The notes under the pieces were generated by a model, which was given only the letters and a program-made list of their open reading frames with translations, was not told where the DNA came from and searched no databases. Source: a virus. Taken from it: a DNA stretch of 64,000 nucleotides. Positions within the stretch are counted from its first letter, which is position 1, and each line of letters starts with the position of its first letter. Below are positions 1 through 60,443 of the stretch, piece by piece. The DNA lies in IMG/VR virus record IMGVR_UViG_3300033153_009093, positions 64,001 to 128,000 of that record; one strand, written 5' to 3'. Both the position numbers and the translations under genes were made by a program.

Positions 1-423
1 TTCATTAATAAAAATATTAATGAAATATTATTAAATAATTCTAAAGATATTTCAGAAATATATATTCAAATTTCTGAAATATCTAATAATAATATAATAA
101 ATGAAAAGTGGTTTGACGGAACAACTTATGTAAGCTCTTTTAATGAATCATTTCCTTATTCATTAAATAATGGTTTAAATGCAATAACATTTACAGATTT
201 TACAGCTAATGAAAATACTGATTATATATTAATATTTATAACAAATAATAATTGCAATTAGTCAACGTCTTTTGATTATACAGATACTGTTAAAATGAAT
301 ATGTCATATAATATTCCTATAGAATTTACATTGGCCGATATAAATTCTATTTCAGAGGTAGAGGTTATACTTCAAAACGTTGATATATTTGCTTATAAAA
401 TATAGTATATAAAAAAGGTTTAA
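1..423 (+). CDS. Partial hypothetical virion-region protein (5' end outside window)
   Basis: Frame 1 is open from base 1 to TAA 421-423 with TAG at 259 and 403. The TAA overlaps the next ATG (TAATG). Confidence 0.6.
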
Positions 424-3089
424 TGATGTTTTATCCTAATAAAATAAAAGAAGCACCGAAATCTAATATTAATGAATATTAGATAAATACTATAGAACTT
501 TTCCCGATAGATTCAATTGATAATGATTTTATAATTGATAATGATTTTATAAATCGATATTATAAAAACTGCAATAAAGTTATCAGAGTAAATGAATTAT
601 TTGATAAATATTTAAAATGTATCGGTGTAAATCAAATTACATCGGAGGAAGAATTTGAATTTTACGAAGAACTGGATAATATACCTTTAACTAAAAAATA
701 TTATTATAAATTAAATGCTATTAATAGCATTGATTCTTCATCTAATTATTATAATATCAATCTTGATATAGATATATATGATTTAATTTATAATAATTAT
801 TTAAAACATAATCTATATAGTAATGGATATTTAACTAATGATGAGTATTTAAACTCTTTAATATTAAATTCAACCATAAATTTAAATATTATATTTGATA
901 AAAATTTATTTTTCGATTATGCAGAATGTATAGCGTATGTAAACTCTTCCAAATTTGAAACAGATTTTTTAGGTCATATAAATTGTATCCTATTCAATGA
1001 TACTATTACATATAACATTATCAATGAAAATATTACTTTAAATATTATATCAGATATTTTCTTTGAAAATAAATTTATATTAAATGTTAATGATAATGAT
1101 TTTTATATAGAGGGTGAAATAGAATCGTTATTATTTGAGCTTACTAATATTATTAGTGATTCGACAATAAATAATATGGAATTAAATATATCCTATACAC
1201 CTTTTTATAAAAACTTAATGTTTTTAAAACGTTACGATGTTGATAATTTAAGTATTATATTTGATATGATTTTTTTAACTAATTTTATTCCTGTAATCCA
1301 AGGAGATGTTGAATATAATAATTTATCTTTAGGTAATGATTATTTTTTAAAATCTTATAAATATTAGAACTCTGCGAAATTATCTAATAAAAAGAATTTT
1401 GTGACCGCAAAAAATTATACACAGAATTTGTTTAATAATATTTATTAGGTAGAAACCATTGATAATAATAATGTAGGCGTTATTAATATATATTCTTTAA
1501 TAAACAATGAACCTATTATAGTTCAACGATATCCATTTTCAAATATAGAAGAAAAATTTAAAATAGCCACTGTGTTAGAACATAATATTTCTATTCATAA
1601 TGTTAATGAGTATATGGCTAATGAAAATATTTTTATTGAATATGACTATACAGGAGGTGGTAGTTTTGAAGATATCAGTATTGAAGATCAATGGGATTAT
1701 ATTGATATTGATTCTCGTAATTTAAAAATTAATACTAATACTAAATTAAACAGTTTTGAAAATAATGGAAATATAACACATACTGAAAATATTAGTGATG
1801 ATCATATTCCCTATCATGGTGATAATAATAATATTACAAATACTTACGGGAGTTTTGAAAATAATATTAAATTTATTAATAGTTGTATCAATTCAACTGA
1901 AATGCAAGGCGATTTATTAATATGTACTTTCAATGGATATACGTCTGTCTTGGATGAAGAAAGGTCAATGGCTGGGAATGTGCCATGTATAAATAATTCC
2001 AATATTTCTCAATCAATTTTAACGAAGTTAAATAATAATTCAAATGAATTCACTTTTGTTTTTCTTACAAATAAGTAGGGATTTAAAAATAATTATTTTA
2101 AAATTGGCAATTTTTAGAAAAATGTCTATGGAAAAATAATTATAATGGAAAAAGAATTAGATTCTATTAATGATATGGTATATCATGTAGATATAGATAC
2201 TTAGGATAATACAGGTTCCTATGATTCTATTTTACATATAATAAAATATAATGATGGTAATTTAAATTATACTGCTTACAATGACAGTACATTATACGCA
2301 TCATTAGATTTGACATCCGTAGATATATCCAATTGTAATATATCTTCATTTAATATTTATAACCATAAAAAAACAATAAACAATACTTCATATACTGACA
2401 GCAGTATAATTGACCCAACTTATGAAGATATAAAATATTATTGTAATACTGTAAATTTAGAAACTCCGATAGAAGGAACAAAGTATAATATAGACATTGA
2501 TCAATATAGAAAAAATTTATCAATACCTGCTGAATACGGAGTATATTCTAATTTTCCCACTGATAAGCATAGTAATTAGGATAATTTTCCTGTGATGATT
2601 TTTGAATTAACTATTCCATCTGATTGCAGTTCATGTAAAATAACATATGACAAATTTCAAGAATCAGTGTTATACTTTTATGAAGGGTCTTTTCCTGATA
2701 ATGTGGATCTAACTTATAATTTCGGAGACTTTTTTGAGTCTGAAGATTTTTCCAATTAGGAAATAATATCAGGCAGAGGAGGAGAAACGATAACTATTAT
2801 TATAAAAGATAAATATTATAGAGAATTAGATATAGATGGAAATTTTTATTTAACAATAGAATATAATGGAGTTTCATATACTGCTGAAAAAGTATTACCT
2901 TCCCCTTATGGAAAAAATAAATAGATATCAGATAAAGGTTTAGATTTACATAAAACTAAAACTGATGAATTTATGGCTGTAGGAAAATATCATATATATA
3001 ATCAATGCATTTCCGATTAGAGAATAGATAAAATAAAGCAGTGTTATGTAAATAATAAATTGTATAACACTGCTTTATTTATAGATTAA
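423..3089 (+). CDS. Hypothetical virion-region protein, 888 aa when TAG is read through
   Basis: ATG 423 follows AAGG. Track ORFs 1176, 1572 and 2310 share this frame. It has 10 in-frame TAG and no TAA/TGA until TAA 3087-3089. Confidence 0.75.
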
Positions 3090-4021
3090 ATCTGAATAGC
3101 TGATTTTATTTTATTTGATATATCTCGTTTAAAATCATAATTATTATTTATAATGGCGGTGGAAGCTTTCTTTATATCCGCCATTTCTTTTTTATAATTA
3201 ACATCATTAAGTAATTTTAATTTATCAGTTTCATTGTTAGTAGCTAATATATTACTTCTGATAACATGATCCATGTCAATCCATATAATAGGCGAATTAT
3301 ATTTTTCTTTAAAAAACAGTACTTCATTTAAAGAATATGCATAGTAATTTATTCGCTTACTATAGTCTTGTATACATTTGTAAGGTTCAATAACAGCGGA
3401 AAGATATTCGAACATGTCATATTTATTACTGAAGTCGTATATTTCGCAAATGACTTTATTATAAAATTCCACTGTCATGTTAAATAATAAATTCATATCA
3501 GGTGAATGGTTATGATTATATATAACAGTCGCCATATCATAAAAATCTTTTAATTTATTATCATTGATATGATCAAAATTCTTATTCTTTATTTGAAATA
3601 TATTTTCTAAAACATATTTAATAATATCCTTATTTACTCCCTTATATAACATTATGCTATCTTTAGCGTAATCAAATATATGTTTATTGTAATTATTATT
3701 TATAACTTGATAATCTATATAATTTTCATCTATCCAATTATAATTAGTATCAATGGGATTTATATTAAATAAATATAAAAATATTCGAGTGATAAAATCA
3801 TATTTATTTAAATTCACCGCTATGTCTAAATCTTTTCTTATCAATTTGGCGGAATAAGATTTTCCGCAATAATGATGACCGCAAAATACAATAAATGGAT
3901 GCTTTAATTTTTTAATAGCTTTTTTAACCATGCAATTTACCTTTAATAATAATAGGTTTCTAAAATTAACAAAAACAGGCCTGTTTTCAATTTTAATTTT
4001 AATGTACGCCCTACTATTCAA
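3086..4021 (-). CDS. P-loop nucleotide-kinase-like protein (dNMP kinase-like); alternative start ATG 3931
   Basis: N-terminal FIVFCGHHYCGKSYSA Walker-A-like motif after a hydrophobic strand. Ends TAA, with no in-frame TAG. Confidence 0.5.
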   Translation of the reverse strand: MNSRAYIKIKIENRPVFVNFRNLLLLKVNCMVKKAIKKLKHPFIVFCGHHYCGKSYSAKLIRKDLDIAVNLNKYDFITRIFLYLFNINPIDTNYNWIDENYIDYQVINNNYNKHIFDYAKDSIMLYKGVNKDIIKYVLENIFQIKNKNFDHINDNKLKDFYDMATVIYNHNHSPDMNLLFNMTVEFYNKVICEIYDFSNKYDMFEYLSAVIEPYKCIQDYSKRINYYAYSLNEVLFFKEKYNSPIIWIDMDHVIRSNILATNNETDKLKLLNDVNYKKEMADIKKASTAIINNNYDFKRDISNKIKSAIQI

Positions 4022-4062
4022 TTTTAATTTAGATTGAAATTTGGCCCCATATAACGATTATT

Positions 4063-5703
4063 TTAATACTGTCTACTAAATATCTTTATAGAGTATGAAT
4101 CGAAACTATTAGAGGGTACTATATTTATTCTTCCTCTACTCTAATTCAACTTAGTATTTAAAGATTCATTAGTATAAAGGTGCTCTTCATTCCAAGTACC
4201 ATCAAGAATATCCATATATTTTATTGAAAATGTTATAGCTGTCGAATCTGATAATAGGTAGACATCACTATCACTTCTTAGGGTTATGTGTTTATCTCCT
4301 GTAATATTCTCATATTCAAGGGGTATAGAAATCTGTATATTACCATCATCATCTTTATATAATTTATTGTCATTTATCAGTACAAAGGGTATAGTATTTA
4401 TATTAGGCTGAACTATATCTATATCATAATAGTTATTTATTACTGTCACTGTATTATCAGTAATATCATATATTTGTATCTCTGAATTATCAATAGAAGT
4501 CTTATCTGTCTACTGATAATTTATATCAACCGTATCAGTAACCCCGGTATTTTCAGTATTTATAATATTATTATAACTAAATTTTAGATATTCTACTAAA
4601 TAAGAATTATTATATTGACTGTTCATTATTATCGCAGATTCATTAGAAAAATTTATTTCCTAAGAATTCTTTGTTTCTAATTTAACAGTATTTTCTATAT
4701 TTATATCAGTATCAGTATATTCATATTCAATAATAAATGAACCGCCCCCTAAATCTATTGTAGTATCAGTATAATTAACTTCCGCTGTAAATAAATCTTC
4801 AGTACAATTTATATTAAATAATTTATTATTTAATAAATCCTTTTTCTAATCTTTAATAAAGAAAGAATCTTTCAATATAAATTCATCAGGATTCAACTTC
4901 TAAGGAAAATCTAGTTCTAATTTAGAGTTATTAAGTTTTATATATCCATTTTCATTATTTGTATTGATATCTATATCATCAATTTCTTTAAGTTTATGAT
5001 AGTGATAGGGTAATTTTCTATAATTATCTATATTAGTTGAATCTTCAAAAACAAAATTATTAACCGTAATTTCTATTATATTTACATTAGTCAAATCACT
5101 TAAGGTTGATTCATTATAATCATTATCTAAATATACAGTTAACTCTTTTGTTTCTATATTCCATAATAATGAATCATAGTAAATCATATATACGTAATCA
5201 TTTAATAAAACATCAACCATCTCTGTTCTTACCGGTATGCTATATGACGAATATTCTGTCAGTTTAGTATATAATGTATCTCCTTCTTCGACATTGTTCA
5301 ACTGAATGACAATAGAAGGAATTGAAGTGGAATCCTATACAGTGGTAACATCATATGTACTATTTATATCATATTGCTTAAATTCATCTTCTTGTAAATT
5401 TATTTCTTCATTAAACGATCCTGTATCAGTCTTATCAAAATTCATAAATTCATCAAAGAAAATTTCAGAAGTCAATAATGATTTTATAACATCTGGATTA
5501 TGTATATCAAGTAATTGTATTATATCAGTATTACCATCAACTACATTTACAGCGTTCGCTTCCATAAATAAATCAGCATATTCATAATCAGGTAAAGATC
5601 TCCTTATAGGGATATTAAGTTTATCCACCGCTGATAATTTATAAATATCAGCTTCATTGGACACTTCCGCATTTGTAAATAATTGATTACCTGTATGTCT
5701 CAT
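4063..5703 (-). CDS. Virion-associated protein, 546 aa with TAG read-through
   Basis: Fuses track ORFs 5335, 4900 and 4141 (same frame, each ending TAG). 6 TAG; ends TAA 4063. Confidence 0.7.
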
Positions 5704-6944
5704 ATTATCATAACCTTCCCTGTTAAATATTCACCAAATGTTATTGTGATAGTGTCAAGCATATTATAATGCGTATTCTCCGGTACTATCTGAGCACCTT
5801 CATCATCATAAACAACTATAGAAGGAATAGCATTTTCGTATTCAATAACCAATTCTTCTACATTGGTAAAATCTTCCGTTATCTTTTCTACATTAGAAGT
5901 TCCACCGCTGCCGCCTCCTGCTCCTGTATTATAAAGATATATATCCGTAGGAATGAATGTTGTTATATTATTTAATCCGATAATAAATCCATAATATGTT
6001 CTTTCTTTTCTTATATTATCCAGTGAATGATTAGATATACTGTCAATCAATAATGCATAATTTGTTTCATTTAATATAGAATCATATAACAGGTCATCAT
6101 TATCATCAATATATATTCCTAATAAAGAATACCCTACATTTAATTGAGCGGGGTCTATTATTACATTCTGGGAATTTATATATTTTAACTTTGAACCATC
6201 CTTATATAATTTGGGTTCTGTTATTATAAGCTTACTTGCACTTTCATCGTATTGTACAAAACTTTGAGCATTAACCCTATATAAATCATTTATAGTCGAT
6301 GATCTTAAAATAGAGCCATAAGTTTTTAATAATACATTTATCTCTTCATTTTGATATTTATTGTCAAATACCAAAGCATTATTTATTTTATCAAATGAAC
6401 AAAGAAATTTGTGTACTGCGGGTTCTTCTGTTACATGCACTGAATATATATCATACTCTATGTATTCATCAACATCTAAATATAAAGGCTATGTAATGTT
6501 TATATTTACTCCTATTGATTCTGAATATAACTGCACTGTTTTATCATTGTATAATTTGACATTATCATCATATTCAATTTCTTCCACTAAATTATTATTA
6601 TTATAAACTGCTATTTTATAAAGATCATCCCCTGATATATCAACATTGATAATCTTTATTTTAATTTTATTTTCTGTATTATTATCCAGTGATATAAAAT
6701 TATTATATACTGTTCTATAATTATTTATAAAGAATAAATGATTTCTACATTTTGCTATTCCTGATATTTCTATATTACTTAAAGAATATGAGATATCAGA
6801 AAATGACTTATATTTATATTGAACGTATATATCTGTCGATGTGTTTTTAATAATATCTTCAAGATGTAACACATTCTCAAAAGTAGATTTATTATAATAA
6901 TAATTCTCCACACTTTCTATTAAGTTTTCATAAAATATTCTCAT
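5700..6944 (-). CDS. Tail/fibre-associated protein, 414 aa, with a Gly-rich linker and C-terminal beta domain
   Basis: Fuses ORFs 6489 and 5700 through one TAG. GAGGGSGG linker, then PSIVVYDDEGAQI...TITITFGEYLTGKVMII, a small beta domain typical of phage virion proteins. Its TGA overlaps the next ATG (ATGA). Confidence 0.65.
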
Positions 6945-6973
6945 TTAAAATCCCGAAACGTTTTAAAAATTAA

Positions 6974-8800
6974 TTATTTCTTGTTATTAATAATATGTAC
7001 AACATCTTCCGGTAAATAATACTTATTATCTTCTGACATTATGTTATAATATTTATCAACTTCGTTTTTATTATAGACATTATTTATTTTAAGTATATCG
7101 ACATTAGTAATATTATACATATAAGTAATATTATTTTCATCATCGGTATAACTGTTTATGAAATTTTCCCTTTTAGGTTCAAATAACATAACCTTTATAA
7201 ATCCAGTATCATAATCCTAATAAGTCAAGCTTAAAGTAATATTATCAATAATCAAATCTATTTCATTATTTCCAATGTATCTATATAACTAATTGTACAT
7301 ACTATGCTGTTTATACTTTATATATATTATAGTATTAAATTTATTTATCTTTCTCCAAAATACATTGATGCTTAAAGAATCTGCCAACATATTAAATACC
7401 GATGTGATATCAGAAATATTAACCGCTGTTGTATTTATTTTTTTAGAATTAAATATCTTTGAAACTACATATTCAGTATTTAAATTTTGAGAAGTAAAAT
7501 CTGTTCTTTCGGATGCATACGTATATTGAAAATTATTTATTAATATATCCGTTGATTGGAATGTATTATAGGAAGGGTAATAAGAATTAAAAGATATCAA
7601 TTGGCTCATTAATGAAAATTTTATATCCTTTGATACATTAAAAGATTTTATATCTTTTATATCTTTTAATGTTATGCTTAATAAATTATCTCTATCATTA
7701 TATAACTCTAAAGGTATAAAATTATTATCCGTTATATAATTATCGCTTATCAATAATGACCTATCAAAATCAACATCAACATAATTAAATCCTATATTAT
7801 TTATGTTGAATAATATTTTTTCTCTTTCTTTTGAATAATACGTTTCTAATTCCGAAGAATTGTATTTTAAATAAGATCCTCTGTTTAAATAATATTCTTT
7901 ATTATCTACAAGGGAATTTATGCTATCTATATTTAATTTAAATATAAATTTACACCCCATATACCAATTAAAATAAAGATTATTATTATATATTTTAATA
8001 TTATCAGAAGATGACTAATTTTTTATATTAAAAAGAATGTGAATATCTTTATAACCATTTCTCAAATTATCTAATTCTTCTTTAAATCTATCACTGTTTA
8101 AAAGAACTGGTAAATTTTTACAAGAATGCTATATATCAGTATTATAATTATCATATTCGGTTGAAGTCATGTCGTAAAAAGTAGAAGAAATTATATTCCC
8201 TTGCGAATATTCTAAATCAATAAGATGCATTTTATAATAAAAAATATTATTACTACTATCAGTACATTTTAAAGTATATTCAGGAAAGTATTCAATGTCA
8301 ACATACCCAGTAAATTCTTCTTTTTCTATCACATCCTATAATAAATCATTATATAAAAATTTACCTTCAGTATTTAATACATAATCATAAATAATATTAT
8401 TATTAACAATATTTCTATATTTATTTATAAATATAGCTTCATTATTCTATTCAGCATTGACGTAACCTGAAATAATAAAATTAAAGTCGTCTAATTTATA
8501 TTTATAATCATCATTGCATAAATCATTGCAGTAATGTTTCATACGGTCATCATGTATTACCATACTTATTATAGCTGTAGAATCCGGTAATATTTCTATA
8601 TTATCAACATTTATAACTGTAGATGTTATATCATATATCGTTGAATCGGATAAAGAAGGCGTATTATTATTGTAATTTAATACATATGAATCCGTTGATG
8701 TTGAATCATCTATATTCGTCTGTTTATAATCGTCATTTTTTAAACTAACAAATATGGCCGATAATAGGTCATTATCGGGATAATATGTCATATTTAGCAT
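6974..8800 (-). CDS. Virion-region protein, 608 aa with TAG read-through
   Basis: Fuses ORFs 8447, 8129, 7289 and 6974 in one frame. 6 TAG; AGGT upstream of ATG 8800; ends TAA. Confidence 0.7.
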
Positions 8801-8805
8801 TTTAA

Positions 8806-9945
8806 TTATACCTAATTTATAACAAAATCAATATTTCTATATGATACATATCGTTTAGTTAATTCTTTATTATAAGGTAACATTATAAAATAGATATTTT
8901 TAGGGAAATATATTAATGCTTCTGCGCTATTATGGTCATATGCGATAGTATTTAATTGACCCCTTTCAACTGTAAAGTTTACATTAGAATTTACTTCTGT
9001 TATTTTTACAATTTCCACACCTGAAGAACTTTTAACAGTTAAATAGGAATATATATCTAAGTCTATATTAGGAGGGGAAGTAAGTTCTAATATAGTATCA
9101 CTGATAGTTAAATTACTATTCAATGCTATTGTGTCAGAGTATGTAATATCTACATTATCAGATAATGATACTAATTTATCATCGCCCTATAAATCAACAA
9201 TTTGATCATACTCATTATTAACCAATGTATATGAATCTTCTTTCCCTAATGAATCGACCATATACTAATTTTTTGTATCAAAGGTATCAATGAATTTAAA
9301 CTTGAAAGGTGATAAATCATTTATTGTTGAATCAGTGAGAATATTAGAATTTATCTGCAATTCATATTTATCATTTTTAAATAATAATAAATCATTTTTA
9401 TAATAATCTTGGTCAATGTCCCTATCAAGATGCACAGTATACGTTGTAGGGTTATCATCAACCGTTTGAATAGTATACTCTTCGTTATAATCCTTGAATA
9501 AAATAACCTTTCCAGTTTCCAAATATGCTAAATCCTTTTCGGCATTTTCAGAACTCTTATCAAATGTAATAATATCTGTTCCTGTTGATATGTTATAATC
9601 CAATAATAATGACGGCCTTTCATATAATTTAAATTCTGGATAATATAAAAAATCATACCCATCATATATTATTTGGAATCTAAATGTAGGAATTTCATCG
9701 GTGCATAATATATTTAACTAACAATCTTTATTATAACTTTTTATTTTTTTATATACAGTATCAATGTCTTTATCTTTTATCTATATCTCCGATGGAATAT
9801 CATTTTGTTCCATCGGAGGTATATTCTTATAAGAAAGTGACATATTTTCTTTACCGCCAGTATTGCAAAAAATTATATCATTAAAAGAATACTATATAGG
9901 ACTATTTATTGTATTACCTACATTTCCTTGTAAATTTACTAACAT
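8806..9945 (-). CDS. Virion-region protein, 379 aa with TAG read-through
   Basis: AAGGAAAG RBS then ATG 9945. Fuses ORFs 9265 and 8812; 6 TAG; ends TAA 8806. Confidence 0.7.
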
Positions 9946-9968
9946 ATTTCTTTCCTTTATAAAAACTA

Positions 9969-11780
9969 TTATTTAAAAACTGTTGTCCTGCAAGTAAAAG
10001 TTGTTGTATTTTTTCCTATGTCCCAATTTACTTTATCGAGTATAAATTCTCTTTCTTTAAAAAAATCTTCCAAATCATCTATTGTAGCAGTTCCTTTAAA
10101 ATTAATATTCATACTTGCTAAATGATTATTAATCATAGCAAAATTATCTGCTATTAATTGAACATCATTATCGCTATAATATACAGCATTGCTATATCCT
10201 ACTGTAGAAAATCTATCGTTACCATATCCAGAAGCTTTAATATCAGAATCTGAACCTGATGAAGCTTTTGAAATATACGTAGGTACTGTGTAAGTTTTTA
10301 AAGGAACCCCTCCCCCTATAAATTCTTTAGAATCATAATCCTGCGAAATTTCTCCTACCTTTTCAGAATGTAATATTCTATGAGAGTTTGTTTTACCTAA
10401 TGGAACCATTTTTATAGTTGACCTTTCAAATCTTTCTCTGCTTATGGATATATTGGCGATATTATTTAATATATGAAGAGAGCCGCCTTTAGCTAATATA
10501 TCTTTTAAAGGTATCATTTCCGTCCCGGATTTGGTATAATAATTTTTTGATGTTTCAAAATCTAACAAAGTTGCATTTTTTATTAATTCTTCTCTATCAA
10601 TAGTTTCTAATAATTGTATTATACTTGATAATCCTTGCTATGTCGTGGCGCCTTTTATGCATTGGTATAGTATTTTTTTATCATCAATATCAGCAACTAA
10701 ACAATCTTCCTACCTGGACTTAACTACTGATGTCTGTTTATAAAATGGTACATTGTCTACTATTTCTTTTTGATAATTATTATGAGTTCTTTCTGTATGA
10801 TTTACAGATTGTATACCATTTCCTTTATTAGCAATAAATACACGTTTAAAATTATTATTATTGCCTACGTGTGCTATTACAATAAAATCATTTAAGTTAA
10901 TATAATTTTCACCATACATATGAGTATTTGTTGTAATTTTCTTTTGCAAAGGATCGGCTCCGATATGAACATATTCATACTCTGTTTCTGTTTTTAATTT
11001 TGTTGAAAATGATTTTTCAGTATAACCACCATCTCCATTATTTTCATAATATAAATTTTGCACAGGGCCGGTATGTTTAGAAGTTATTTCTGATGTAACT
11101 TTATATGGTATTATAGATTTATTATAATAGTCTATATCGTAACCTTTTGAATCATAGGATATTCCTTCTATATACGCATCGCTGCTACCCCCATAATATA
11201 CTTCATGTTCAGATATGACATTTCCAGTTACATAGAATATTCTGTTTTGTTTCGATTTATTAGTTGTAACAGATGCTAATGTACTACATGTGCTATTCAA
11301 AATACCTGATTCCTGATCTAATGATTCCGCAATAACTTCATATTTTTTATCATACTATTTATCTTTATAAACTAAACCGAATCGTTGAGCTATAGTATTT
11401 TCTGATGTTGACGACTATAGAATACTGACAATATTAGGGGGTGTTCCTAATAAAATATTGTCTTCATTTATACTAAATTCCTTATATTTTACATTTTTAT
11501 TTAAAATAGAATATATTTGAGACGGAGGAAACTGTTTTTCGTATGAAATATAAGTAATTACTTCAGTTAATAAACTTTTTTCATCTACCTATAATTCACT
11601 TACATCGTATGTCAATTCTTCTGATGCTCGTGAAGGATATCGTTTTACCATACCCCCAAATTCTTCTTCTAAAATATCATTTGAATCAATTTCAACTAAA
11701 GGTATACCCCGGGGTTCTACGTATATATCAACCTTTTTATTTTTTTGAAGGTCATATATAATTTGTTTAAGGATTTTCAT
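9969..11780 (-). CDS. Putative baseplate hub / tail-tip protein, 603 aa
   Basis: Fuses ORFs 11589, 10710 and 9969; 5 TAG. The C-terminus ILDKVNWDIGKNTTTFTCRT resembles hub-type tail proteins (recognised by eye only). Confidence 0.55.
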
Positions 11781-12150
11781 TATTTATTTCCTATGAAATA
11801 ATTTCATGATATTCATTAGTATTATCAATGATTATTAAATCTAATTTATTAAAAGTTCTATTTAAATATTTTAAATTAAACTCTTCAATACTTAAGATAT
11901 CATTATTAATAATAATATCCCTTTTGCCTATTAAATTAGTAAATTTTACTTCTGTAAATAATTTACAATCTTCATAATATACTTCATTATTATTTGTTGC
12001 AGGTGTAAATATAGACGATAATATAACTTTTATATTATCGTCTATATTTAATTTAGCGATGTCAATAAAATTATAACTAAATATAGAATAAAAATTTATT
12101 ACATTGCCATAAAAATAAATTTTACTTGTAGTGTTATTAAAATATATCAT
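11767..12150 (-). CDS. Hypothetical protein, 127 aa
   Basis: Track ORF 11791..12150 ends TAG; reading through reaches TAA 11767. Confidence 0.55.
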
Positions 12151-12158
12151 ATTGTATT

Positions 12159-13118
12159 TTATATAAAAATTAAATATAAATTTTTATACTCTCCTGAATT
12201 AATATTATTTATAAAATCTATATCCGAAGGGAAATCGTTGATTATTATCTTGTAATTAAATTTATTATTTAACAAATTAGTTGTATTATTAATTAAATGA
12301 TTGAACCTATACATAAAATTTAAAGGAAATTTGAGTTCTGTATTTATATCAAACATTATTTTAAATGTTATTTCATATAATGAATTGGTTTCGCTAATGA
12401 ATTTATTTTTTGATGACTTTGTAACTATTTTACTTAAAATGTTATTATTAAAATTTATTGGAATCTTTATCAAAAAATTATTTAAATTCTAATTATCTTT
12501 TATAAATATATCATTATTATTTAAATCTAATGGCAGTTCATTAAAATGATTTAATAAAAATCTTTTTCTATTTTCAGTATCGGAAGATTTTAAAACCTTT
12601 TCTGATATTAAATAATTAATAATATTACTATTGTATAAATTATTTATGATGTAGTCTTTTGAATATATCATAGTTTCTTCAAAATTAAATAATTTTAATT
12701 TACCATTATGATTTATAGTTTCTTTAATTGTATTATCAAACCCGGAAGGTTTATTGATGAATATTATTATATTATCTTCTTTTATTGCAGAATTAAATGA
12801 AATAATTTGTTTTTTTATAAAAGAATTTTTATTATTAACATTACTAGAATTGTAATAATTTGTTTCAATATCCCCTGTATAATCTGGAAACAATGAAGCT
12901 TTTTCATCAAAGGTGGATAAATTATTTAATTGGCTGTAAGGTATATTATTATCTGATAATTTATTATGACAATTAAATGATATAGGATTTTCAATATTGA
13001 TTACTATATTTTGTTGCAATTTAATATCATTATCATTATCCTTTACCTATGATACATTTTCTGAAAAATTTAATAATGAATCATAATTCTCTAATATCTT
13101 CAGTGCATAATTTTTCAA
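12159..13118 (-). CDS. Hypothetical protein, about 319 aa
   Basis: Fuses ORFs 12489 and 12159; 2 TAG. Probable TTG start at 13118 after AGGT. Confidence 0.6.
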
Positions 13119-13138
13119 AACAATACCTATTAATTTAT

Positions 13139-13162
13139 AATTTATAAATTAATTTATAAATT
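13139..13162. promoter_or_regulatory. Perfect 24-bp palindrome (AATTTATAAATT twice) in a divergent intergenic gap
   Basis: AATTTATAAATTAATTTATAAATT equals its own reverse complement and lies between divergent starts at 13118 (-) and 13184 (+). Confidence 0.35.
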
Positions 13163-13183
13163 AAATATACATGGTAATAATGA

Positions 13184-14128
13184 ATGAGTATAGATAAATA
13201 TAATTTATTTATAAATAAAAGCTTTAATACTTATGATTTTTCAAATAATAAAGATATCAGCATATATAATACTGTAAACGGTAATTTTATAGAAAATACT
13301 GTATATATTATTCATAATAATAAACCTACTTCAAGTACTTCATTTATAACAATGAATGTAGACGATGTACTTGAAGTATATTTATTTCCAACAATGAATA
13401 CGAATATAACGTTTAAAGTAAACGAAATATTACATACTGTTGACAATAATTCAATTTTTATTATAACTAATCATATTGAAGAAAATAGATTTGCAATAAA
13501 GTTAGTATAGAGCAAAAATGATACTGATTATAATTTATATAATAATTTTCCATCATTATTATATAACAAATCTATTGAAGATTTATTTTATAAATTAAAT
13601 ATTAATAAAGATGCTATTGCTGAACAAAAATCCAATTATACTTCAATTTTAAATTCAGGAACAGAATTAAGTGAATTTATAAATTCCAAAATTACAATAT
13701 CTACCGATTATACTGATTCTTATACTTTAAATTTTTCTTTTTCGTCTACAGAAGATTTTTCAAGAATAGCTTCAGTGATAGATAAATTTTATTTAAATAT
13801 ATAGGTATATGATTATAATGAATTTAAATATATTTATTGTAAGGATATTATAGAATCTTCTGGAAACTATACATTATCTAATACTAATCATATTACAGGA
13901 ATATTAAAAAATTCTTATACAAAAATATTACCTCATGCATATTTTAAATTGCAACAAGGAAAAGATTATGTATATTCTGATAATATATTGAATAAATATA
14001 CTTCATATAATAAAAATTATACCGGTCAAAAAATATTGATACTATTTCAATTGTCAATTAATGATAAAAGTACAATTTATGATATATCAAATAATATAGA
14101 AAGTGATTCAATATACATCATTGCATAA
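13184..14128 (+). CDS. Hypothetical virion-region protein, 314 aa
   Basis: Track ORF 13184..13510 continues through 2 TAG to TAA 14126-14128. Confidence 0.65.
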
Positions 14129-14140
14129 GGTAATATTTTC

Positions 14141-15319
14141 ATGAAGTATAAATTAAAACCAAAGAATAATATTCTTAAATATTTATTAGGTGATATTGAT
14201 TAGATTGATATTTCATATACACTTAATTCTACATATAATACATTACTATTATGTTTAAATGAACCGCTATTAGATATATTATATAAATATGACCAATATT
14301 CTATAAATTATTCCTCTGATTAGACAGATACAGGGCATGATGAATGTCTATCGCTGGAAATGGAAATAGTATCTGATACTATTATGAAATTTAATATTAA
14401 ACAAAAATTTGTTAGATGTTTTTCATATTATAAAGAATATACTAATACTACTAATACTAATGATATTGGTATATATACTAATACAAAAAACTTTATAAGT
14501 TTATATCCTAAATTATTTTTAGATTCCGAAAATTCAGAAATCAATAATTTATTAACTACAGAGGAAAAAATAAATTTACAAAATTCTAAATTAATAAATG
14601 CCGAATTTACTGATTCTGATAATTTTTAGATTCCTACTATTAATAATAATGCATCAAAAGGAAAATCCCTTCCTGCTCATATAGAACTCATATCATTCAT
14701 TGATTCAAATTTAGATTATATAAAAAAAGAATATAATTTAAGTGATTCTATAACTGATGAAAATCATATAATAGATATATAGTATGATGAAAATCCTAAT
14801 GTAGATAAATATTCCACATATGCGAAGTCATTTAATATTATTAATGATTCTACTATTATATTTGATTTTGAAATTTATATTAATATTAATCAGTATAATT
14901 ATTTATTAGATATTAATGATATCAATATTGATTATCATATAAATGTCACAGGTGATAATGTAATAACCGGAACTACATTTAACCTTGATATATATGAAAA
15001 TATCAACAATTATTTTAACATCAATGACATTGTATATATTAAAAATATATACACCGATACAATAGTCAGCATTTGTAAAGTTACAAATATTATAAATAAT
15101 AAATTAACTTTATCTAAATTATAGGCCGAAATATCAGGAGATATTAATATTGATTATATGGATAAATATATACTTAATAAAATAAAAAATTTAGAAAATT
15201 GCAACGATGTTCAAGAAAAAAATAACATTTTAAGAAAATTGCTAATTAATAATTTATTTGTTATAGACGATATTGAGTTTAATGAAAATGATTATTTAGC
15301 TATAAATAACTTTGGTTAA
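14141..15319 (+). CDS. Hypothetical virion-region protein, 392 aa
   Basis: AAGGT RBS, ATG 14141, 5 TAG, TAA 15317-15319. Contains track ORF 14360. Confidence 0.65.
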
Positions 15320-15325
15320 TATTAT

Positions 15326-43402: not shown

Positions 43403-43405
43403 AAA

Positions 43406-44713: not shown

Positions 44714-44787
44714 TGGACTCGGTTAAGAGAATCGAACTCCTATACACAGATTTAGAGTCTGTTATCTTGCCATTAGATCAAACCGAG
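44714..44787 (-). tRNA. Amber-decoding tRNA, anticodon CUA, 74 nt with encoded CCA
   Basis: CTCGGTT-TG-ATCT AATGGCA AGAT-A-ACAGA CT CTA AA TCTGT-GTAT-AGGAG TTCGATT CTCTT-AACCGAG-T-CCA. All four stems pair; anticodon at 44753-44755. Confidence 0.95.
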
Positions 44788-44810
44788 TTTTATCTAACAT
44801 ATTTAATTAA

Positions 44811-44839
44811 TCTATATCATTTTTTATTTTAATATACAA
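44811..44839 (-). promoter_or_regulatory. Possible sigma70-type promoter upstream of the tRNA
   Basis: TTGTAT-N17-TATAGA with a TG extended -10, 23 nt upstream of the tRNA. Weak evidence given the AT richness. Confidence 0.25.
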
Positions 44840-45379: not shown

Positions 45380-45411
45380 AATTATAGTATTATTTTAATT
45401 AAATTATTTAT

Positions 45412-46929
45412 TTAAAATAGCGAAACATTTTGTGATACTTGATTATTAGATTTTGTTTTCTTTTCAAATTGACCTAACATTCCGCCCCCTTCTTCGGCAC
45501 TACACTTTTCAAATCTTGCAAAATTAGGACGATATCTACAATTTATTATAGTACCATCTTCATGATATCTATGTTTTTCATTATATAATACGACCATATT
45601 ATATCCTAAATCTTTATAAGTATCTTTTACCTGCATTGTAATAACGATATCGGCATTTTCATATTTTGACCAACCGCCTCCAATGTCCGTACCACTTGGC
45701 ATTTCGTCATCGCTTTTACTTTTTCTTGCGCCTTCTCTATTAAACTGCGATACAGTTAACCCGCAAGTGTCATATTTTTTTGAAACAGCTTTGAAATCAT
45801 CTACAATATTCCCTACAACTTCATCACTTCTCAATGTTTTTCTATTATCAATAGGTAACATTTTATCTACATAGTCAAGCATAATAGAATATACAATAGA
45901 ATCTTTAAACTTTAATAGAGTTCTATCAATGCATGCTTCTATAGCTAACATATTATGACGTTTAGGTGGCAATTCAACTACGACTAATATAGTATTTTTA
46001 TCCTTTTGTTTTAAATATAATTTTATGATTTCTTTTCTTTTCTGATCATCCAATATATCATACTTTAATTTATTAATATCTATATCAGTTATATTTGAGA
46101 TAATCCGTAAAAAAGTTTCTGTTTTAGAATTTTCAAAAGTAAAATAGAAAACAATATTTTTTTTATTACCAGTTTTTTTAGACCGTAAGTGTTCTGCCGT
46201 TGAATGGCACAGAAACATTGATTTCCCGGCCCCGGAAGCCCCGATTAATATACCTATTCGTTTCTTCTCTATAAATCGAATTTCGCTTAATATTGAAACT
46301 TCTCGACACTCTTCTTGAACTACAGCCGATTCTTGTAAAGCTTCATCAATATCATCGATATCATTTTCTAAAACAAAATCGTCATTTATTAAAGAATCAT
46401 CATATGTCAAAAATATTTTTGATAATCTTTGTTCGTATTCTATTGTTGGGTCTTCTATTGTATAAAATTTATTATATAAATCATATAAATCAATAATAGA
46501 TTTATGAAGAGATAAAAATTTAATAACTTTATCAAATTCTATATTTATTGAACTATTATTAAATCTATTTGAATCTTTATTATTAACAATGTAATTTATA
46601 AATTTTTGTACTTTATTAAATGTATTATTATCTATTGTGTTTTCTATTTTATTTATAATACTTTGTTTTATAGAAACAATATCAGCATTTATACTTATTG
46701 TTTTTGATTCTATAATTAAAGATAATATTTTTATGAAGGCAGGATTATCCGTTTCATATACTAATGATAGTGATTTATAGGACTGTTGTTTTGTAGTAAA
46801 AAAATAATTTAAGAAACTATTTATATTTAATAATGATGCGTCTTTAAAATTAGTAATGTCATATCTTAATAAACCTATACATAATAAAGATATATACTCA
46901 GGTGTTAAATATTTTTTATCTATAATCAT
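45412..46929 (-). CDS. DnaB/gp41-like replicative helicase
   Basis: GASGAGKS, YFTFEN, MLDYVD, TVSQFNR motifs. Confidence 0.85.
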   Translation of the reverse strand: MIIDKKYLTPEYISLLCIGLLRYDITNFKDASLLNINSFLNYFFTTKQQSYKSLSLVYETDNPAFIKILSLIIESKTISINADIVSIKQSIINKIENTIDNNTFNKVQKFINYIVNNKDSNRFNNSSINIEFDKVIKFLSLHKSIIDLYDLYNKFYTIEDPTIEYEQRLSKIFLTYDDSLINDDFVLENDIDDIDEALQESAVVQEECREVSILSEIRFIEKKRIGILIGASGAGKSMFLCHSTAEHLRSKKTGNKKNIVFYFTFENSKTETFLRIISNITDIDINKLKYDILDDQKRKEIIKLYLKQKDKNTILVVVELPPKRHNMLAIEACIDRTLLKFKDSIVYSIMLDYVDKMLPIDNRKTLRSDEVVGNIVDDFKAVSKKYDTCGLTVSQFNREGARKSKSDDEMPSGTDIGGGWSKYENADIVITMQVKDTYKDLGYNMVVLYNEKHRYHEDGTIINCRYRPNFARFEKCSAEEGGGMLGQFEKKTKSNNQVSQNVSLF

Positions 46930-46931
46930 TT

Positions 46932-47780
46932 TTATTTTAATAAAGGAGAGAATTTTGTCATTATGTTAGCTACAAATAAATATTTAATATTATTTGTAAT
47001 TAAATCTGTCGGATCTAAACTATTGCTTAATTTATCATGTTCATATCTAAAAAAATCTGTCGGATCAGCATATTCTACATAATCATATAAAATTTCATTT
47101 AATTCTTTTAAACTATTAATATTTCCTATTATAAAATTAACAACATAATTTAAAATTTTACGATACGCTGGAATATTTACCCAACCGCCTGTATATTTTA
47201 TATTGACTATTTTATTATCATTTAAATAATATACTCCATTTTTTTTATTTAATACAATGACATGGTCGTACTTTTTATACTTTGTTATCTTTAAAAATCT
47301 ATCACTCACATACATTTCGGCAGAAACATTAGTATCTAATGTAGAAAATTCAATATCATCATAATTCATTCTTTTTATTATCAATGATTTTGTTGACATT
47401 TTATGTAATTTAAAAAAATTCAAAAAAAATACATTTCTTATAGCTACCATATATCTATTTAGTTTTATATTATTACATAATAATCTTTTATAAAATAATC
47501 CAAACTCTACAACTCTTTTTTGTTTAGACATAGAATTACAAATTGAAATATATTCATCGATAATGTTACTTTTAATAATGTTATTACAAGCTATTAAAAA
47601 ATTTACATTAAATGAAATGATATCAATAGAGTTAATATCATTTAATACCGACTCTTCTTCATAGAAAAAATCAGAATTTTTAGGATATATATTATAATAT
47701 TTTTTTAATAAATTTAAACATGATATATTATTTATAAATTCTTTTGCGCTTGCCTCTCTAATATCATTTATTACGCTCAT
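46932..47780 (-). CDS. Hypothetical protein, 282 aa
   Basis: Long ORF in the operon, ending TAA. Confidence 0.6.
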   Translation of the reverse strand: MSVINDIREASAKEFINNISCLNLLKKYYNIYPKNSDFFYEEESVLNDINSIDIISFNVNFLIACNNIIKSNIIDEYISICNSMSKQKRVVEFGLFYKRLLCNNIKLNRYMVAIRNVFFLNFFKLHKMSTKSLIIKRMNYDDIEFSTLDTNVSAEMYVSDRFLKITKYKKYDHVIVLNKKNGVYYLNDNKIVNIKYTGGWVNIPAYRKILNYVVNFIIGNINSLKELNEILYDYVEYADPTDFFRYEHDKLSNSLDPTDLITNNIKYLFVANIMTKFSPLLK

Positions 47781-48282
47781 AAGTTTTTATTATTTCAGTT
47801 ATAGGTAATAATTTATAATTATTATTATCGTAGCCTACGTCAATAGCTCTATCATTATATTTAATTTTTCCATGAGCATGTCCGTGTAAATGAATAGAAT
47901 TTTTATAATAATCAGGCTATTCGTATAACGGATAATGAAATAAATTAAATATATAATTATTATAATTTAATGTACAAATAGTATTATTTAAAATAATTAT
48001 TTTATTACTAATAGTTATATTATACTTTTTGAATTTATCATGATTACCAATCAATAAATAAATTTTTCCATTTAATTTATTCATTAGATTTATAGTATCT
48101 TTAACTTTCGCAGAACTAAAATCGCCAATATAATAAATTTCATCTGATACATTTATTTGATTGTTCTATTGAGAAATTAAAGATTTATTTACTGTTTTTA
48201 CATCTTTCCCTAATTGATATCTATTATTATGATATAAATAATTACTATCAAAGAAATGATGATCTGCGCTTACATATATCAT
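47764..48282 (-). CDS. Calcineurin-like metallophosphoesterase, 172 aa (absent from the ORF track)
   Basis: AGGA RBS. Motifs SADHHF, LISQ*NNQINVSDEIYYIGDF, LLIGNHD, FHYPLYE*PDYYKNSIHLHGHAH, DVGYD. TAG at 48166 and 47917; ends TGA. Confidence 0.9.
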
Positions 48283-48286
48283 ACTG

Positions 48287-48502
48287 TTATTCCTTAGTAA
48301 ATATATAAATTCCATCCTTATATTTATCAGAAAACGAAAAAGGAAAATAACTTCTGCTAATTTTCCGATAAATATATGACGTGTAAAGTATTATAGATTG
48401 TTCAGGTCTTGGCATAACTTGTACAACTATCATAAAATTTTTATCTAAATTAGCAGGAAATCCATGTTCGTGTATACAATCTTCTAATTTTAAGTCTTTC
48501 AT
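48287..48502 (-). CDS. Small hypothetical protein, 71 aa
   Basis: Track ORF, tightly packed, ending TAA. Confidence 0.5.
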   Translation of the reverse strand: MKDLKLEDCIHEHGFPANLDKNFMIVVQVMPRPEQSIILYTSYIYRKISRSYFPFSFSDKYKDGIYIFTKE

Positions 48503-52206: not shown

Positions 52207-53103
52207 TTACCTTTTTAATAAACTTTTTATTTTATCTAATTGTTTTTGTTTATCTTTAATCTAATATTTCTCAAAGATATGTAATAACTTATACCCTTTT
52301 TCTTTACATATATCAGTTTTCATTTGATGATATTCATCAGCGGTATAATTTTTCTTATATTTCTTTTTTATCATCTCATCAGAATGCCAATAACTGCCAT
52401 TAAATTCAATCGCAAAACTCTTTGAGGGTATTACTATATCCAGTTCATAAGGCTTGATTATAGACCTATTGGACTGTTCATAATCAATATTTAAAGAGTC
52501 AAGAAAAGAACATATTTCTTTTTCCGGTTTTGAAACTTGATTTGAGCATTTTGGACAACTTCTTCCGCTTAAATGACTATTTGGTGTTTGTTTAAATATA
52601 CCATGCTTAGGGCAAATTATTTTTATTTTAACCAGACTACCTTTATATTTTATTAATGAGTAGTCGTATTTATTATTATGTAATTTATTTGATTTATTAA
52701 TAAAAGTATCATCTGTTATAGTTCGTCTATTACATTTTGGACAACCTGAGCCATATAAATGAGAATTTGCTTCTTGCTAAAATATACCATGAACTTTACA
52801 AATAATTTTAATCTTTTTATGAATGGTTATATAATTAACTAACTTATAATTATATTTCTAACAATGTACTTTAATTGCTTTTTCAATAAATTCTTCTGTA
52901 GTTAATTTTTGAAAACCTGAACACTTTAGACAACCTTGTCCGCGTAAGTGTTTATTAGGAGTTTGATTAAATTCTCCATGAATAGGGCAAAGTATTTTAA
53001 CTTTTACATGAGCATTTACATACTTAACTAATTTATAATTATATTTCTAACCATGAACATTTATAGCTCGTTCTATAAATTTTTCAGTCGTTAATCTCTT
53101 CAT
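52207..53103 (-). CDS. Endonuclease with three HxxKYxY..CPxHGxFxQ..GCxKC repeats and a C-terminal Vsr/PD-(D/E)xK domain, 298 aa (absent from the ORF track)
   Basis: ATG 53103 to TAA 52207; TAG at 53047, 52858, 52777 and 52261. YELDIVIP, IEFNGSYWHS, HIFEKY*. Confidence 0.85.
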
Positions 53104-53109: not shown

Positions 53110-53835
53110 TTATTCTCCGCAACTTGCACTTAAATTAACAGGTTCGGTATTTCCGGTGATTTTTTCTAATATTATATCCACTGTCATAATTCTAGCAGTT
53201 AATTGAATAGAAAGACTTCCTCCGTCCTTTTTACATTCCAAATTAAAACTTTCTAAAAATTGCTGATTATCATATAATGGTAAAGAATCAAATTGAAATA
53301 ATTCCTATTTTCTTAATTTTTTATACGTCATTACTCCGCTGTTAATATCCATTGTTTGATATAATTTATCATTATAAATAACTGAAAGATTAGACATTAC
53401 ACCTATAGCAATATTATAAATAGTATCAACTATAGGGTTCATGTCTTCTGTTAATGTCGCAGCTAATAAAATTTCATCCAATATATAATCAAAGTGTATA
53501 AGTTCTTCCATGCAATCTATATATGAAAAAGTTTCATTCAATGAAATTTTATTAATAAATGCTCTTATGCACTTTTCATCTACATTTCCATCTTGATCCG
53601 CTATCTAATTTAAATTATGGTATGCTTTCATTTGAGCTTGATAACTCGAAGGTAAACTAGTTACATTTAATATAGTATCATCGTCATCATAACAACCTTC
53701 TAATTTAAATGATACTTCGCATACAATTGTATCATTAATATGCTATATATCAAACATATTATATTTTAATGCTCTTGTCATATACGCAGGAGTTTTATTA
53801 GTATTGACATCATCTGATATTACAACTATATCCAT
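53110..53835 (-). CDS. Hypothetical protein, 241 aa
   Basis: ATG 53835, 3 TAG (FDI*HIND, LN*IAD, RK*ELF), TAA 53110. Confidence 0.65.
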
Positions 53836-58519: not shown

Positions 58520-59851
58520 ATGAAAAAGTGTATAAAAAATTATTCTATAAACATATCATCATCTAATTATAATAAATTAACCAATTATTTATTATACTAT
58601 AATAAGTGTAAAAATTTATTTTATAATAAATATTAGAATGATATCGGTACAATATATTTACCATATAAATATGAACTACGAGATACATTAGTTTCAAATA
58701 TAAAAAATAATGATTTGAATATTAATGAATTGGATTTATTAAAAAGCGTTCCCGCTAAATTATAGAAAAACGCATTAACTGAATCTATAACTAATTTAAA
58801 ATCTAATTAGTCTAATACAAAAAATAGAATTAGACAAAAAATAAAAAAGAACAAAAATTTTTCTGAAAAAGATACTCATTATTTATATTATGTACTTAAA
58901 TCAAATAACATATTACATAATATAAATAATGGAGATTTGAATATAACCTTAGAAAAATTTGATGTAAATTATAAAAAACTTAATTCATATTTATATCGAC
59001 AAATAAAAAAAGAAAAAAGAAAACCTTATTCTAAAAGTAATAGTTATATTATAGATAGTAGCTCGCAAATATTATACAAACAAATAGATAATAATTTAAT
59101 TTGTTTCCTATCAACATTAAAAAAACGAGAAAGGATTTTAATCCGTTTATCAAATAGTATAAAATATAAAGGCGATATTCGTATAGTATTAAAAAATAAT
59201 AAAATGGAACTACATAAAGTTATTAATATTAAACCTCAATTAAATAACAACAATTCTATTACTGGAATTTATATTGATTTTAATAATTTATTCACAACCC
59301 AAAATAATATTTATGGTAAAAATTTCGATAAACTATTAAAAAAATTTGCACATATTATTCACTGTAAATCAAATAAAAGGGAAATCCTTAAATCAATGAA
59401 TAATATACTAATACAAAAAAATAACTTAGGTACAAAAAAATAGCACAGTAAAAAAAGAAAATTTATTAATGAATTAAATTCCTTTATAAATTTGAATTTG
59501 AATTTATTAATTAAAGAAGAGCGGCCTAAAACTATTATTATAAAAAAAATAAATAAATATTTATTATATAATAATAGAGATAATTTATTTAATATTCCAA
59601 ACCATCATTTATAGATCTTAAATAATTATATAATAAATTACATTTATAAACGATTAGAATACAAAACACAATTAAATCAAATTAATATAATATTAGATAG
59701 TTCAAATTATACAATCAAAGTATGTAATAATTGTAAAAGTAGAAATACTATTATTACAAAAGGGTACTTTAAATGTAATAATTGCATGGTTAGTATAACT
59801 AAAACATCTAATACAATAAACAATATGATTGAGCATCACGGTGTTAATTAA
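58520..59851 (+). CDS. TnpB-like protein with degenerate RuvC active site, 443 aa
   Basis: VPAKL*KNALTESITNLKSN*SNTKNRI, NNLGTKK, KRLEYK, CNNC...CNNC Zn ribbon. RuvC positions read GIYIDF, IIIKKI and ITKTSN, with no acidic catalytic residues. 5 TAG; ends TAA. Confidence 0.8.
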
Positions 59852-59961
59852 TGTTGTTTACCTAACTGGTTTTTGGAAAATGTATATTTATATACATTAC
59901 TGGTTTAACCTAACTTCACGGAAAGAGAAATTTAAATTCAGTTAATAGTAAATTCCCTTAT

Positions 59962-59992
59962 ACCGGAGAAGATTTTCTTCTCCGGTTTTTTT
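59962..59992 (+). terminator. Intrinsic terminator, probably bidirectional
   Basis: ACCGGAGAAGA-TTT-TCTTCTCCGGT 11-bp stem followed by a T-run, between convergent genes. Confidence 0.85.
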
Positions 59993-60443
59993 ATAGATAC
60001 TTTTCAATTTTTTTATTAGTACTTTCATGTAAAATCATATCACTTTTATTTTTATTAAAATATGATTTTGGTGTGCCTTCAAATTTTCTCGACATTCCCC
60101 TCTAATCGGCAATCATTTGAAGTATGTATTTTTTTGGCATTTCAATAGGAATTATTTCATTTTTCCTTGTTACAGATACCTAGTAATTCTAATGATGTTT
60201 ATTTCTTTTTTGATGTTTATTCTACCCTTGTTGAAATAATTTATCGTTTCCATCAGATTTACAATAATTATTTAAGCTATCTTTCTTTTCAAAAAAGATA
60301 GCAGATGGTATAAATTCGGATGGTAAAAATTTTGATAAGTCATGAGTAATTGCATGATAATATAGTCCCATGTTGATACATTCTATTCCTACATTCTTTT
60401 TATGCTCAATAATATATTTAAAATATTTCTAATATTTATTCAT
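59991..60443 (-). CDS. DUF5662-like (HD-type) protein, 150 aa (absent from the ORF track)
   Basis: MNKY*KYFKYIIEHK, AITHDLSKFLPSEF, QQG*NKHQKRNKHH*NY*V, IPIEMPKKYILQMIAD*RGMS. TAG at 60429, 60222, 60189, 60180 and 60102; no TGG. Confidence 0.85.

Follow-up and report, generated by a model that had tools for sequence, protein, structure and literature searches.

A probable two-part genetic code in a large AT-rich phage, with TAG read as tryptophan through a phage-encoded tRNA and candidate synthetase

The middle of one 180,374-bp virus record (IMGVR_UViG_3300033153_009093, a phage genome rated complete by IMG/VR) holds a long run of genes that are interrupted, in frame, by the codon TAG. The window analysed here is the 64,000-nucleotide stretch from base 64001 to base 128000 of that record (24% G + C). 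An earlier note on this DNA, made from its letters alone, had proposed that TAG stands for tryptophan (Trp) and not glutamine (Gln), a reading that is borne out by the Trp columns of related proteins and by codon pairs between related phages. Translated with table 11, the opening 42 kb of the window breaks up into many short open reading frames (ORFs), whereas tightly packed genes appear when TAG is taken as sense. The 24 genes between positions 1 and 42.1 kb comprise 13,685 codons, including 117 in-frame TAG (0.86%), 17 TGG, and 307 CAA or CAG, and this recount agrees well with hand counts of about 120 TAG, 15–20 TGG, and a TAG frequency of about 0.9%. Read-through had also been described as fusing fragments into three very long genes, and these are found as ORFs of 2213, 2092, and 1291 amino acids (Table 1). 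The gene block is the second half of a 59-kb TAG block of the genome; over window positions 1–60443 there are 138 TAG and 39 TGG, 16 of the latter inside TAG-bearing genes.

These TAGs are real sense codons. The 24 genes contain no in-frame TAA or TGA, which follows from the definition of an ORF, and their other two frames hold 2032 TAA, 1025 TGA, and 678 TAG. Since TAA is three times as common as TAG off frame, decay should have left many more TAA codons than TAG codons. One might suppose from the stop codons alone that the TAGs are untranslated and mark pseudogenes, split genes, or errors of assembly or base calling, but that explanation has next to no probability, as the same TAG sites recur in assemblies made independently (IMG/VR, Logan, ENA, and GenBank), and a matching tRNA is present. 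For the genome as a whole, a set of 180 non-overlapping ORFs was built with TAG as sense, covering 90% of the sequence, and contains 305 in-frame TAGs in 64 of its members. Open frames of 100 codons or more, summed over six frames, make up a share of 0.78 of the genome with TAG as stop and 0.98 with TAG as sense. Genes end in TAA (150 genes) or TGA (30 genes), and TAG is rare as a terminator, with at most about seven candidates.

The residue specified by TAG can be read from families in which standard-code relatives are available. DUF5662, phosphoesterase, terminase, and TnpB-like proteins were compared in this way, with TAG masked as X. All five TAGs of the DUF5662 gene fall on columns that hold Trp, in 91, 117, 120, 120, and 119 of 120 relatives, and the motifs named for this family in the earlier note (KY*KY, G*NKH, HH*NY*V, and IAD*RG, with an asterisk for TAG) are all found. 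The phosphoesterase motifs LISQ*N and HYPLYE* are likewise present, and both of their TAG columns are Trp in 6/6 homologues from phages of Pseudomonas, Aeromonas, Escherichia, Vibrio, and Cronobacter. The terminase has nine TAGs and no TGG; in seven distant standard-code relatives three of these nine columns are invariant Trp and the remainder are F/Y or variable, and in one close relative that uses the standard code, seven of the nine sites are TGG. Within the TnpB/Cas12f-like gene, where PAKL*K and KSN*SN were located as described, relatives have Trp at two to three of the five TAG columns, Y, H, or L at the others, and never Q. This gene of a mobile element is written in the phage code and must therefore be an old resident of the recoded lineage.

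A further comparison comes from two paralogous genes with a Vsr-like domain, both of which had been thought to carry TAG in the motif HIFExx*. The copy in the window does so (HIFEKY*); its TAG-free paralogue, outside the window, has TGG at the aligned position. The description was thus inexact for the second copy, and the TGG/TAG pair nevertheless backs the Trp reading. A search of solved structures with the Vsr-like domain yielded only one borderline hit, to a mobile-intron protein (E = 0.012), in which the TAG site is not covered.

Columns at least 80% conserved in relatives were pooled for DUF5662, phosphoesterase, and terminase. TAG occupies nine of the ten Trp-conserved columns, the tenth having tyrosine (Tyr) here, and none of the 17 Tyr-conserved or nine Gln-conserved columns. 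Conversely, the 11 TAGs at conserved columns face W nine times, F once, and G once. A residue tally at TAG columns had been set as the test of the proposal, and it is W-rich, with no Gln-dominated TAG column in standard-code relatives. Glutamine is the meaning of TAG in ‘code 15’ of crAss-like and Lak phages, where tRNA(CUA) is loaded by host glutaminyl-tRNA synthetase (GlnRS), and it is a rival candidate here: public pipelines already translate the lineage in this way, most phage tRNA(CUA) insert Gln in Escherichia coli extract, and U35 is regarded as an identity element for GlnRS. The empty Gln columns argue strongly against it, as do the codon pairs and codon usage described below, and this meaning is extremely improbable.

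In public collections, close terminase relatives show Q at TAG columns, and these proteins match their own DNA only ‘with_TAG=Q’. The Q is there because gene callers translate TAG as Gln, so it is no evidence for Gln. Database proteins made with TAG=Q (P0121, P0122, and P0144 among them) have 0–1 Trp per 600–1100 residues. Gene-calling programs able to detect recoded TAG take it for Gln, with the consequence that proteins of this lineage are stored with Gln at each TAG-encoded Trp, which damages homology searches and structure prediction.

Table 1. Features of the window and of related sequences. Positions are those of the window unless another sequence is named.
Feature	Position	Strand	Remarks
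TAG-reading gene block	423..42069	both	24 genes, 117 TAG, 17 TGG; ORFs of 2213, 2092, and 1291 amino acids
2213-amino-acid ORF	18074-24715	-	5 TAG, 1 TGG
2092-amino-acid ORF	26386-32664	-	
1291-amino-acid ORF	32745-36620	+	
TAG-free, TGG-using block around the tRNA	42092..47780	-	SNF2/ResIII helicase, 374-amino-acid ORF, HNH-NUMOD4 endonuclease, DnaB-like helicase, 282-amino-acid ORF
tRNA(CUA)	44714..44787	-	ARAGORN; Rfam tRNA 59.4 bits; sole tRNA of genome
HNH-NUMOD4 homing-endonuclease-like gene	44840-45379	-	6 TGG, no TAG
Metallophosphoesterase gene	47764..48315	-	2 TAG, both at invariant Trp of cultured-phage homologues
Treble-clef + Vsr-like endonuclease gene	52207..53103	-	4 TAG, 1 TGG
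Unknown-function gene	53110..53835	-	3 in-frame TAG
TnpB/Cas12f-like gene	58520..59851	+	5 TAG, no TGG
DUF5662 gene	59991..60443	-	5 TAG, no TGG; Pfam E = 1.8e-26; all TAGs on family Trp columns
Vsr-like paralogue	genome 39814-41268		TAG-free
59-kb TAG block	genome 47218-106069		
TrpRS-family gene	genome 134073-135023, ~6 kb past window end	-	316 amino acids, class Ic; no TAG, no TGG
tmRNA gene	genome 171981-172339	-	full length; Rfam 100.7 bits
Terminal inverted repeat	genome 1-114 and 180261-180374		perfect, 114 bp
tRNA(CUA) of G001	G001 112953-113043		91 nt; ARAGORN only, missed by Rfam scan
RF2 genes of G001 and G002	L082:799-1911; L083:796-1938	+; +	prfB model 357–371 bits

Evolutionary exchange of codons within the lineage points in the same direction. 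The IMG/VR members that share the terminase or the synthetase described below are only two, the complete genomes G001 (276 kb) and G002 (233 kb); the lineage is otherwise represented by short contigs from Logan and ENA and by a contig of 197 kb considered further on. The phage genes were aligned codon by codon with seven related loci, where the 255 partners of TAG are TAG (118), TGG (33), TAT (33), and TTT (12) among others, and CAA or CAG in no case. Over the whole of G001, TAG faces TAG 93 times, TGG 48 times, and CAA/CAG once; over G002 the counts are 43, 26, and 0. Seen from the partner codons in the seven loci, TAG is opposite 29% of TGG, 1.1% of TAT, and never CAG. Each residue in turn was also assigned to TAG in a likelihood calculation that included the relatives’ codon usage, giving log10 values of −252 for W, −342 for the next residue, and −359 for Y, with Gln outside the best six.

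The same pairs bring up Tyr as a rival meaning, in which a synthetase of the Trp/Tyr family has switched to Tyr. No other non-synonymous partner faces TAG as often as Tyr does, and Tyr comes marginally above W in the likelihood when TAG–TAG pairs are ignored; that variant of the calculation was rejected as biased, since it is through TAG–TAG pairs that these genes express Trp identity. Were TAG a minor codon for Tyr, it should pair mostly with TAT, in the way that TAC does (53%; for comparison, CAG faces CAA in 36%), and these control minor synonyms pair with themselves in only 10–14% of cases (TAC 10%), whereas TAG pairs with itself in 46%. The full likelihood places W 107 log10 units above Y, and the Tyr-conserved columns described above are devoid of TAG.

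Codon usage within the genome provides a third line of evidence. In the 64 TAG-bearing genes TAG makes up 1.11% of codons, TGG 0.16%, and Gln codons 2.07%, and in the 116 TAG-free genes TGG makes up 0.84% and Gln codons 2.24%. TGG is depleted 5-fold where TAG is present and Gln codons are not depleted. Use of TAG and TGG is complementary (Spearman rho = −0.46, p = 1e-10), and their sum in TAG-bearing genes, 1.27%, is near the usual content of Trp. If TAG meant Gln or Tyr, late proteins would be nearly free of Trp, and the terminase and many proteins of 400–900 amino acids would have none at all.

The genome carries candidate parts for such decoding. The phage tRNA(CUA) has the anticodon loop C-U-CUA-A-A (CUCUAAA), a first pair C1:G72, the discriminator U73, and an encoded CCA end. 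Those of G001 and G002 differ widely from it in sequence, yet C1:G72, U73, the encoded CCA, and the CUCUAAA loop are common to all three. A pattern scan of IMG/VR for tRNA(CUA) with a GAG-U-CCA end found only G002. The G001 tRNA has an extra arm with the stem GGGU/ACCC and the loop UUAAUU, and the idea of a long extra arm as a mimic of the anticodon hairpin of tRNA-Trp was rejected for the lineage, as that loop contains no CCA. Beside the tRNA in the window lies the homing-endonuclease-like gene of the TAG-free block; the 374-amino-acid ORF in the same block was considered as a decayed release factor, and this was rejected.

The second part is a tryptophanyl-tRNA synthetase (TrpRS)-family gene beyond the end of the window, with homologues in G001 and G002 that are 44–50% identical. 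It scores 84.8 bits with the Pfam model tRNA-synt_1b, LHIGH and KMSKS are invariant in the three phage enzymes, and the Asp of the Trp pocket of TrpRS-type enzymes is present in the motif YPVLQ..D. The best match of a three-enzyme profile in the PDB is the iron–sulfur (Fe-S) TrpRS of Thermotoga maritima (2g36; 1.3e-17), its Cys motif included; in the phage enzyme, a Cys motif resembles the one at the 4Fe-4S site in the Thermotoga protein. A predicted model of the enzyme (predicted local distance difference test, pLDDT, 71.5) gives TrpRS for each of its first 44 PDB fold matches, at a template modelling (TM) score of about 0.67. The enzymes of G001 and G002 score best on the trpS model, below its cut-off: the curated TIGR00233 threshold of 176.75 bits is reached by none of the three (79.6 and 58.7 bits for the relatives, 32 for this phage). 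Judged by profile and predicted fold, the synthetase is a divergent member of the TrpRS family. A tblastn search with it against 50,697 GenBank phage records gave no match. As the gene has no Trp codon of either kind, its own synthesis is independent of how Trp is decoded. Neither GlnRS nor the pyrrolysyl enzyme PylS is encoded in the genome.

Several observations weigh against Trp, in addition to the frequent facing of TAG and TAT. Bacterial tRNA-Trp has G73 and usually A1:U72, with a CCA anticodon, and the phage tRNAs, with CUA, U73, and C1:G72 in all three, are unlike it; their sole Trp-like trait is the C-U-NNN-A-A loop. Compared with the relatives’ tRNAs and those of GenBank phages, the phage tRNA was no closer to any of the classes compared. 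C1:G72 is typical of archaeal and eukaryal tRNA-Tyr, and the NCBIfam scores of this phage’s enzyme are weak and slightly higher for tyrosyl-tRNA synthetase (TyrRS; 40 bits) than for TrpRS (32 bits). Tyr at position 4 is invariant in the three phage enzymes, and we take this to be the position of the substrate-binding Tyr of TyrRS. These features lend Tyr some credit, and they are opposed by the profile and fold matches to TrpRS and by the discriminator, which in tRNA-Tyr is A73 rather than U73. With the columns and codon pairs added, Tyr is a very unlikely meaning.

Other difficulties concern accuracy and efficiency. Host GlnRS charges su+7 of E. coli, a tRNA-Trp with a CUA anticodon, so that it carries mainly Gln. 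When 29 phage tRNA(CUA) were tried in E. coli extract (a 2025 preprint), 28 inserted Gln and one Ala. Some misincorporation of Gln may occur in the real host. No release factor gene was found in the 180-kb genome, and proteins with up to 20 TAGs require very efficient suppression in competition with the host release factor RF1. One could therefore propose that decoding is mixed or leaky, with Trp joined by Gln from host GlnRS or with partial termination by RF1, and that TAG mainly throttles the output of late genes. The su+7 precedent would suit this, as would the lack of any detected RF2 or anti-RF1 function in this genome and a few TAGs that lie 2–8 codons ahead of a TAA or TGA stop and could themselves act as stops. 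However, TAG occurs at invariant, structurally important Trp sites and is strongly conserved between relatives, which favours faithful Trp; full-length product from genes with 18–20 TAGs would be impossible under leaky reading; and the lineage as a whole has kept a TrpRS of its own. Leaky decoding as the main explanation is unlikely, though somewhat less so than the other alternatives.

Release factors were found in the larger relatives, as G001 and G002 each carry RF2 at 0.5–1.2 kb upstream of tRNA(CUA). The G002 RF2 frame includes one TAG if it is read from the first listed start codon. In comparison, the present genome has a minimal decoding kit without RF2.

As far as comparison of genes can establish it, TAG is a sense codon whose evolutionary meaning is Trp, and the genes for tRNA(CUA) and TrpRS are conserved in the lineage. 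Very probably this phage uses a two-part code, in which Trp is written almost only as TAG in 64 genes and as TGG in the rest, and both the tRNA and the TrpRS are supplied by the phage. Among the TAG genes are the terminase and capsid genes, a small number of mobile or accessory genes, and the large genes that fill the 59-kb block and are presumably structural. The phosphoesterase, TnpB, and DUF5662 genes use TAG and stand outside the late or structural pattern. The 116 genes that use TGG serve replication and nucleotide metabolism or are small early-type genes, and no TAG occurs in the helicases, primase, ribonucleotide reductase, or TrpRS. For the host itself TAG would be a stop, to judge from its strict absence from the 116 genes, where AT pressure should favour it, its rarity as a terminator, and its absence from the TrpRS gene. 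Formally, the code corresponds to table 32 of NCBI, with TAG as Trp and TAA and TGA as stops.

A possible course of infection can be outlined from these features. Standard-code early genes, that of TrpRS included, would be translated by the unmodified host. The tRNA(CUA), presumably loaded with Trp by the phage TrpRS, would then allow TAG to be read as Trp on ribosomes and so open the late genes, such that the division of genes between two codes could act as an early/late switch. C1:G72 and U73 are probably the mark that TrpRS reads in place of a CCA anticodon, which would create a private pair, and host RF1 would have to be outcompeted during infection. Host TrpRS should refuse CUA and host GlnRS should accept it, so the phage needs a solution of its own and appears to carry one. 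We lean, with reservations, towards a still wider picture: a large marine-type phage lineage with a self-contained, orthogonal amber-Trp system that gates late translation, built from an Fe-S-type TrpRS reading C1:G72/U73, tRNA(CUA), and, in the larger relatives, RF2, the code itself being undescribed for viruses and prokaryotes.

The large genes of the window have proved difficult to name. They had been described as genes of the virion region, and this holds in so far as a terminase and a gp23-like capsid protein are recognized, both encoded upstream of the window; the big ORFs within it have no family match. Searches of the ten largest TAG-rich window ORFs against Pfam and PHROGs gave no match, which makes them unusable for residue tallies and means that they cannot be named as virion parts. 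A 1123-amino-acid protein with 19 TAGs, compared with 1.84 billion representatives, found only lineage-restricted relatives, either fragments cut at TAG or full-length versions with TAG=Q, and tblastn with a 482-amino-acid protein and an SLT-like protein found no match among GenBank phages. The 2213-amino-acid ORF is an outlier in composition (34–45% G + C, against 22% around it), rich in Gly, Ser, Ala, Leu, and Arg, and has few Trp codons of either type. It resembles a tape-measure or internal protein, and may be a recent acquisition.

Judged by its genes, the phage is a distant T4-like large phage without a cultured close relative; its terminase is of the T4 type, with at most 27% identity to those of cultured phages. 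The inverted repeat at the genome ends may be a real end of a linear genome or an artefact of assembly, and IMG/VR also classes the record under inverted terminal repeats, where G001 and G002 instead have direct terminal repeats. A transfer-messenger RNA (tmRNA) with the tag peptide ADDYAIAMAA is also encoded, and might hint at the host or at the handling of ribosomes stalled at TAG. The 197-kb contig mentioned above, JAOZRH010000001.1 (197,384 bp), is contig 1 of a metagenome-assembled genome of ‘Candidatus Neomarinimicrobiota’. It is TAG-recoded, with a terminase 57% identical to that of the phage, and probably represents a phage whose genome was put into the same bin as bacterial contigs; it could be a hint at habitat or host.

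Comparison with known systems begins with su+7, which shares with the phage tRNA its CUA anticodon and, around it, a C-U-NNN-A-A loop of the tRNA-Trp kind. Su+7 receives mostly Gln from GlnRS, and the phage tRNA differs in having C1:G72 and U73 together with a candidate cognate enzyme. To our knowledge, the only other code with TAG as Trp is that of an equally AT-rich plastid. The plastids of Balanophoraceae use the same codon table (NCBI table 32) and are likewise extremely AT-rich, and in an AT-rich genome the change could plausibly be driven by pressure from G to A on TGG; the parallel makes a role of AT pressure in code change testable. They differ in that an organelle uses one code for all its genes, and the phage uses TAG partially, beside TGG, with decoding parts of its own. 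The earlier note knew of no TAG-to-Trp code in phages or bacteria, and full-text searches, in which subscription journals were thinly covered, found UAG as Trp only in plastids of holoparasites. Within the literature searched, the pairing of TAG with Trp is new for phages.

Phages whose code differs from that of the host have been seen with only two changes, TAG to Gln and TGA to Trp (Borges et al., 10.1101/2021.08.26.457843), and later surveys of recoded phages assume Gln for TAG. The present phage would add a third meaning of a stop codon in phages, and would break the pattern in which host GlnRS or TrpRS tolerates a mutant anticodon. It shows two features by which stop-recoded phages are recognized, namely in-frame TAGs that restore coding density and a matching suppressor tRNA. 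Like the code 15 phages (crAss-like, Lak, Agate, and others; Borges et al., 10.1101/2021.08.26.457843; Peters et al., PMC9523058), it has in-frame TAG in presumably structural or late genes, the standard code in the genes without TAG, and a phage tRNA(CUA), and RF2 occurs in some genomes of both groups (here G001 and G002). In contrast to those phages, TAG does not align with Gln in standard-code homologues; the residue is Trp, and the phage supplies its own synthetase.

The closest design is that of the TGA-to-Trp phages, namely the Jade phages, with their module of TrpRS, tRNA-UCA, and RF1, and the AP1 TrpRS:tRNA(UCA) pair (PMC12636597). There, as here, a phage TrpRS is combined with a suppressor tRNA and a release factor that spares the recoded stop, and the synthetase gene is kept in the standard code. 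The present lineage differs in recoding TAG rather than TGA, with a tRNA in which position 35 of the anticodon, and not 34, departs from tRNA-Trp, and in having RF2 (in the relatives) instead of RF1, the 180-kb genome having no release factor. Because of its odd acceptor end, a natural TrpRS:tRNA(CUA) pair could be a candidate for orthogonal use in amber suppression with Trp analogues, and would match, for amber codons, the phage TrpRS:tRNA(UCA) pair that was engineered recently.

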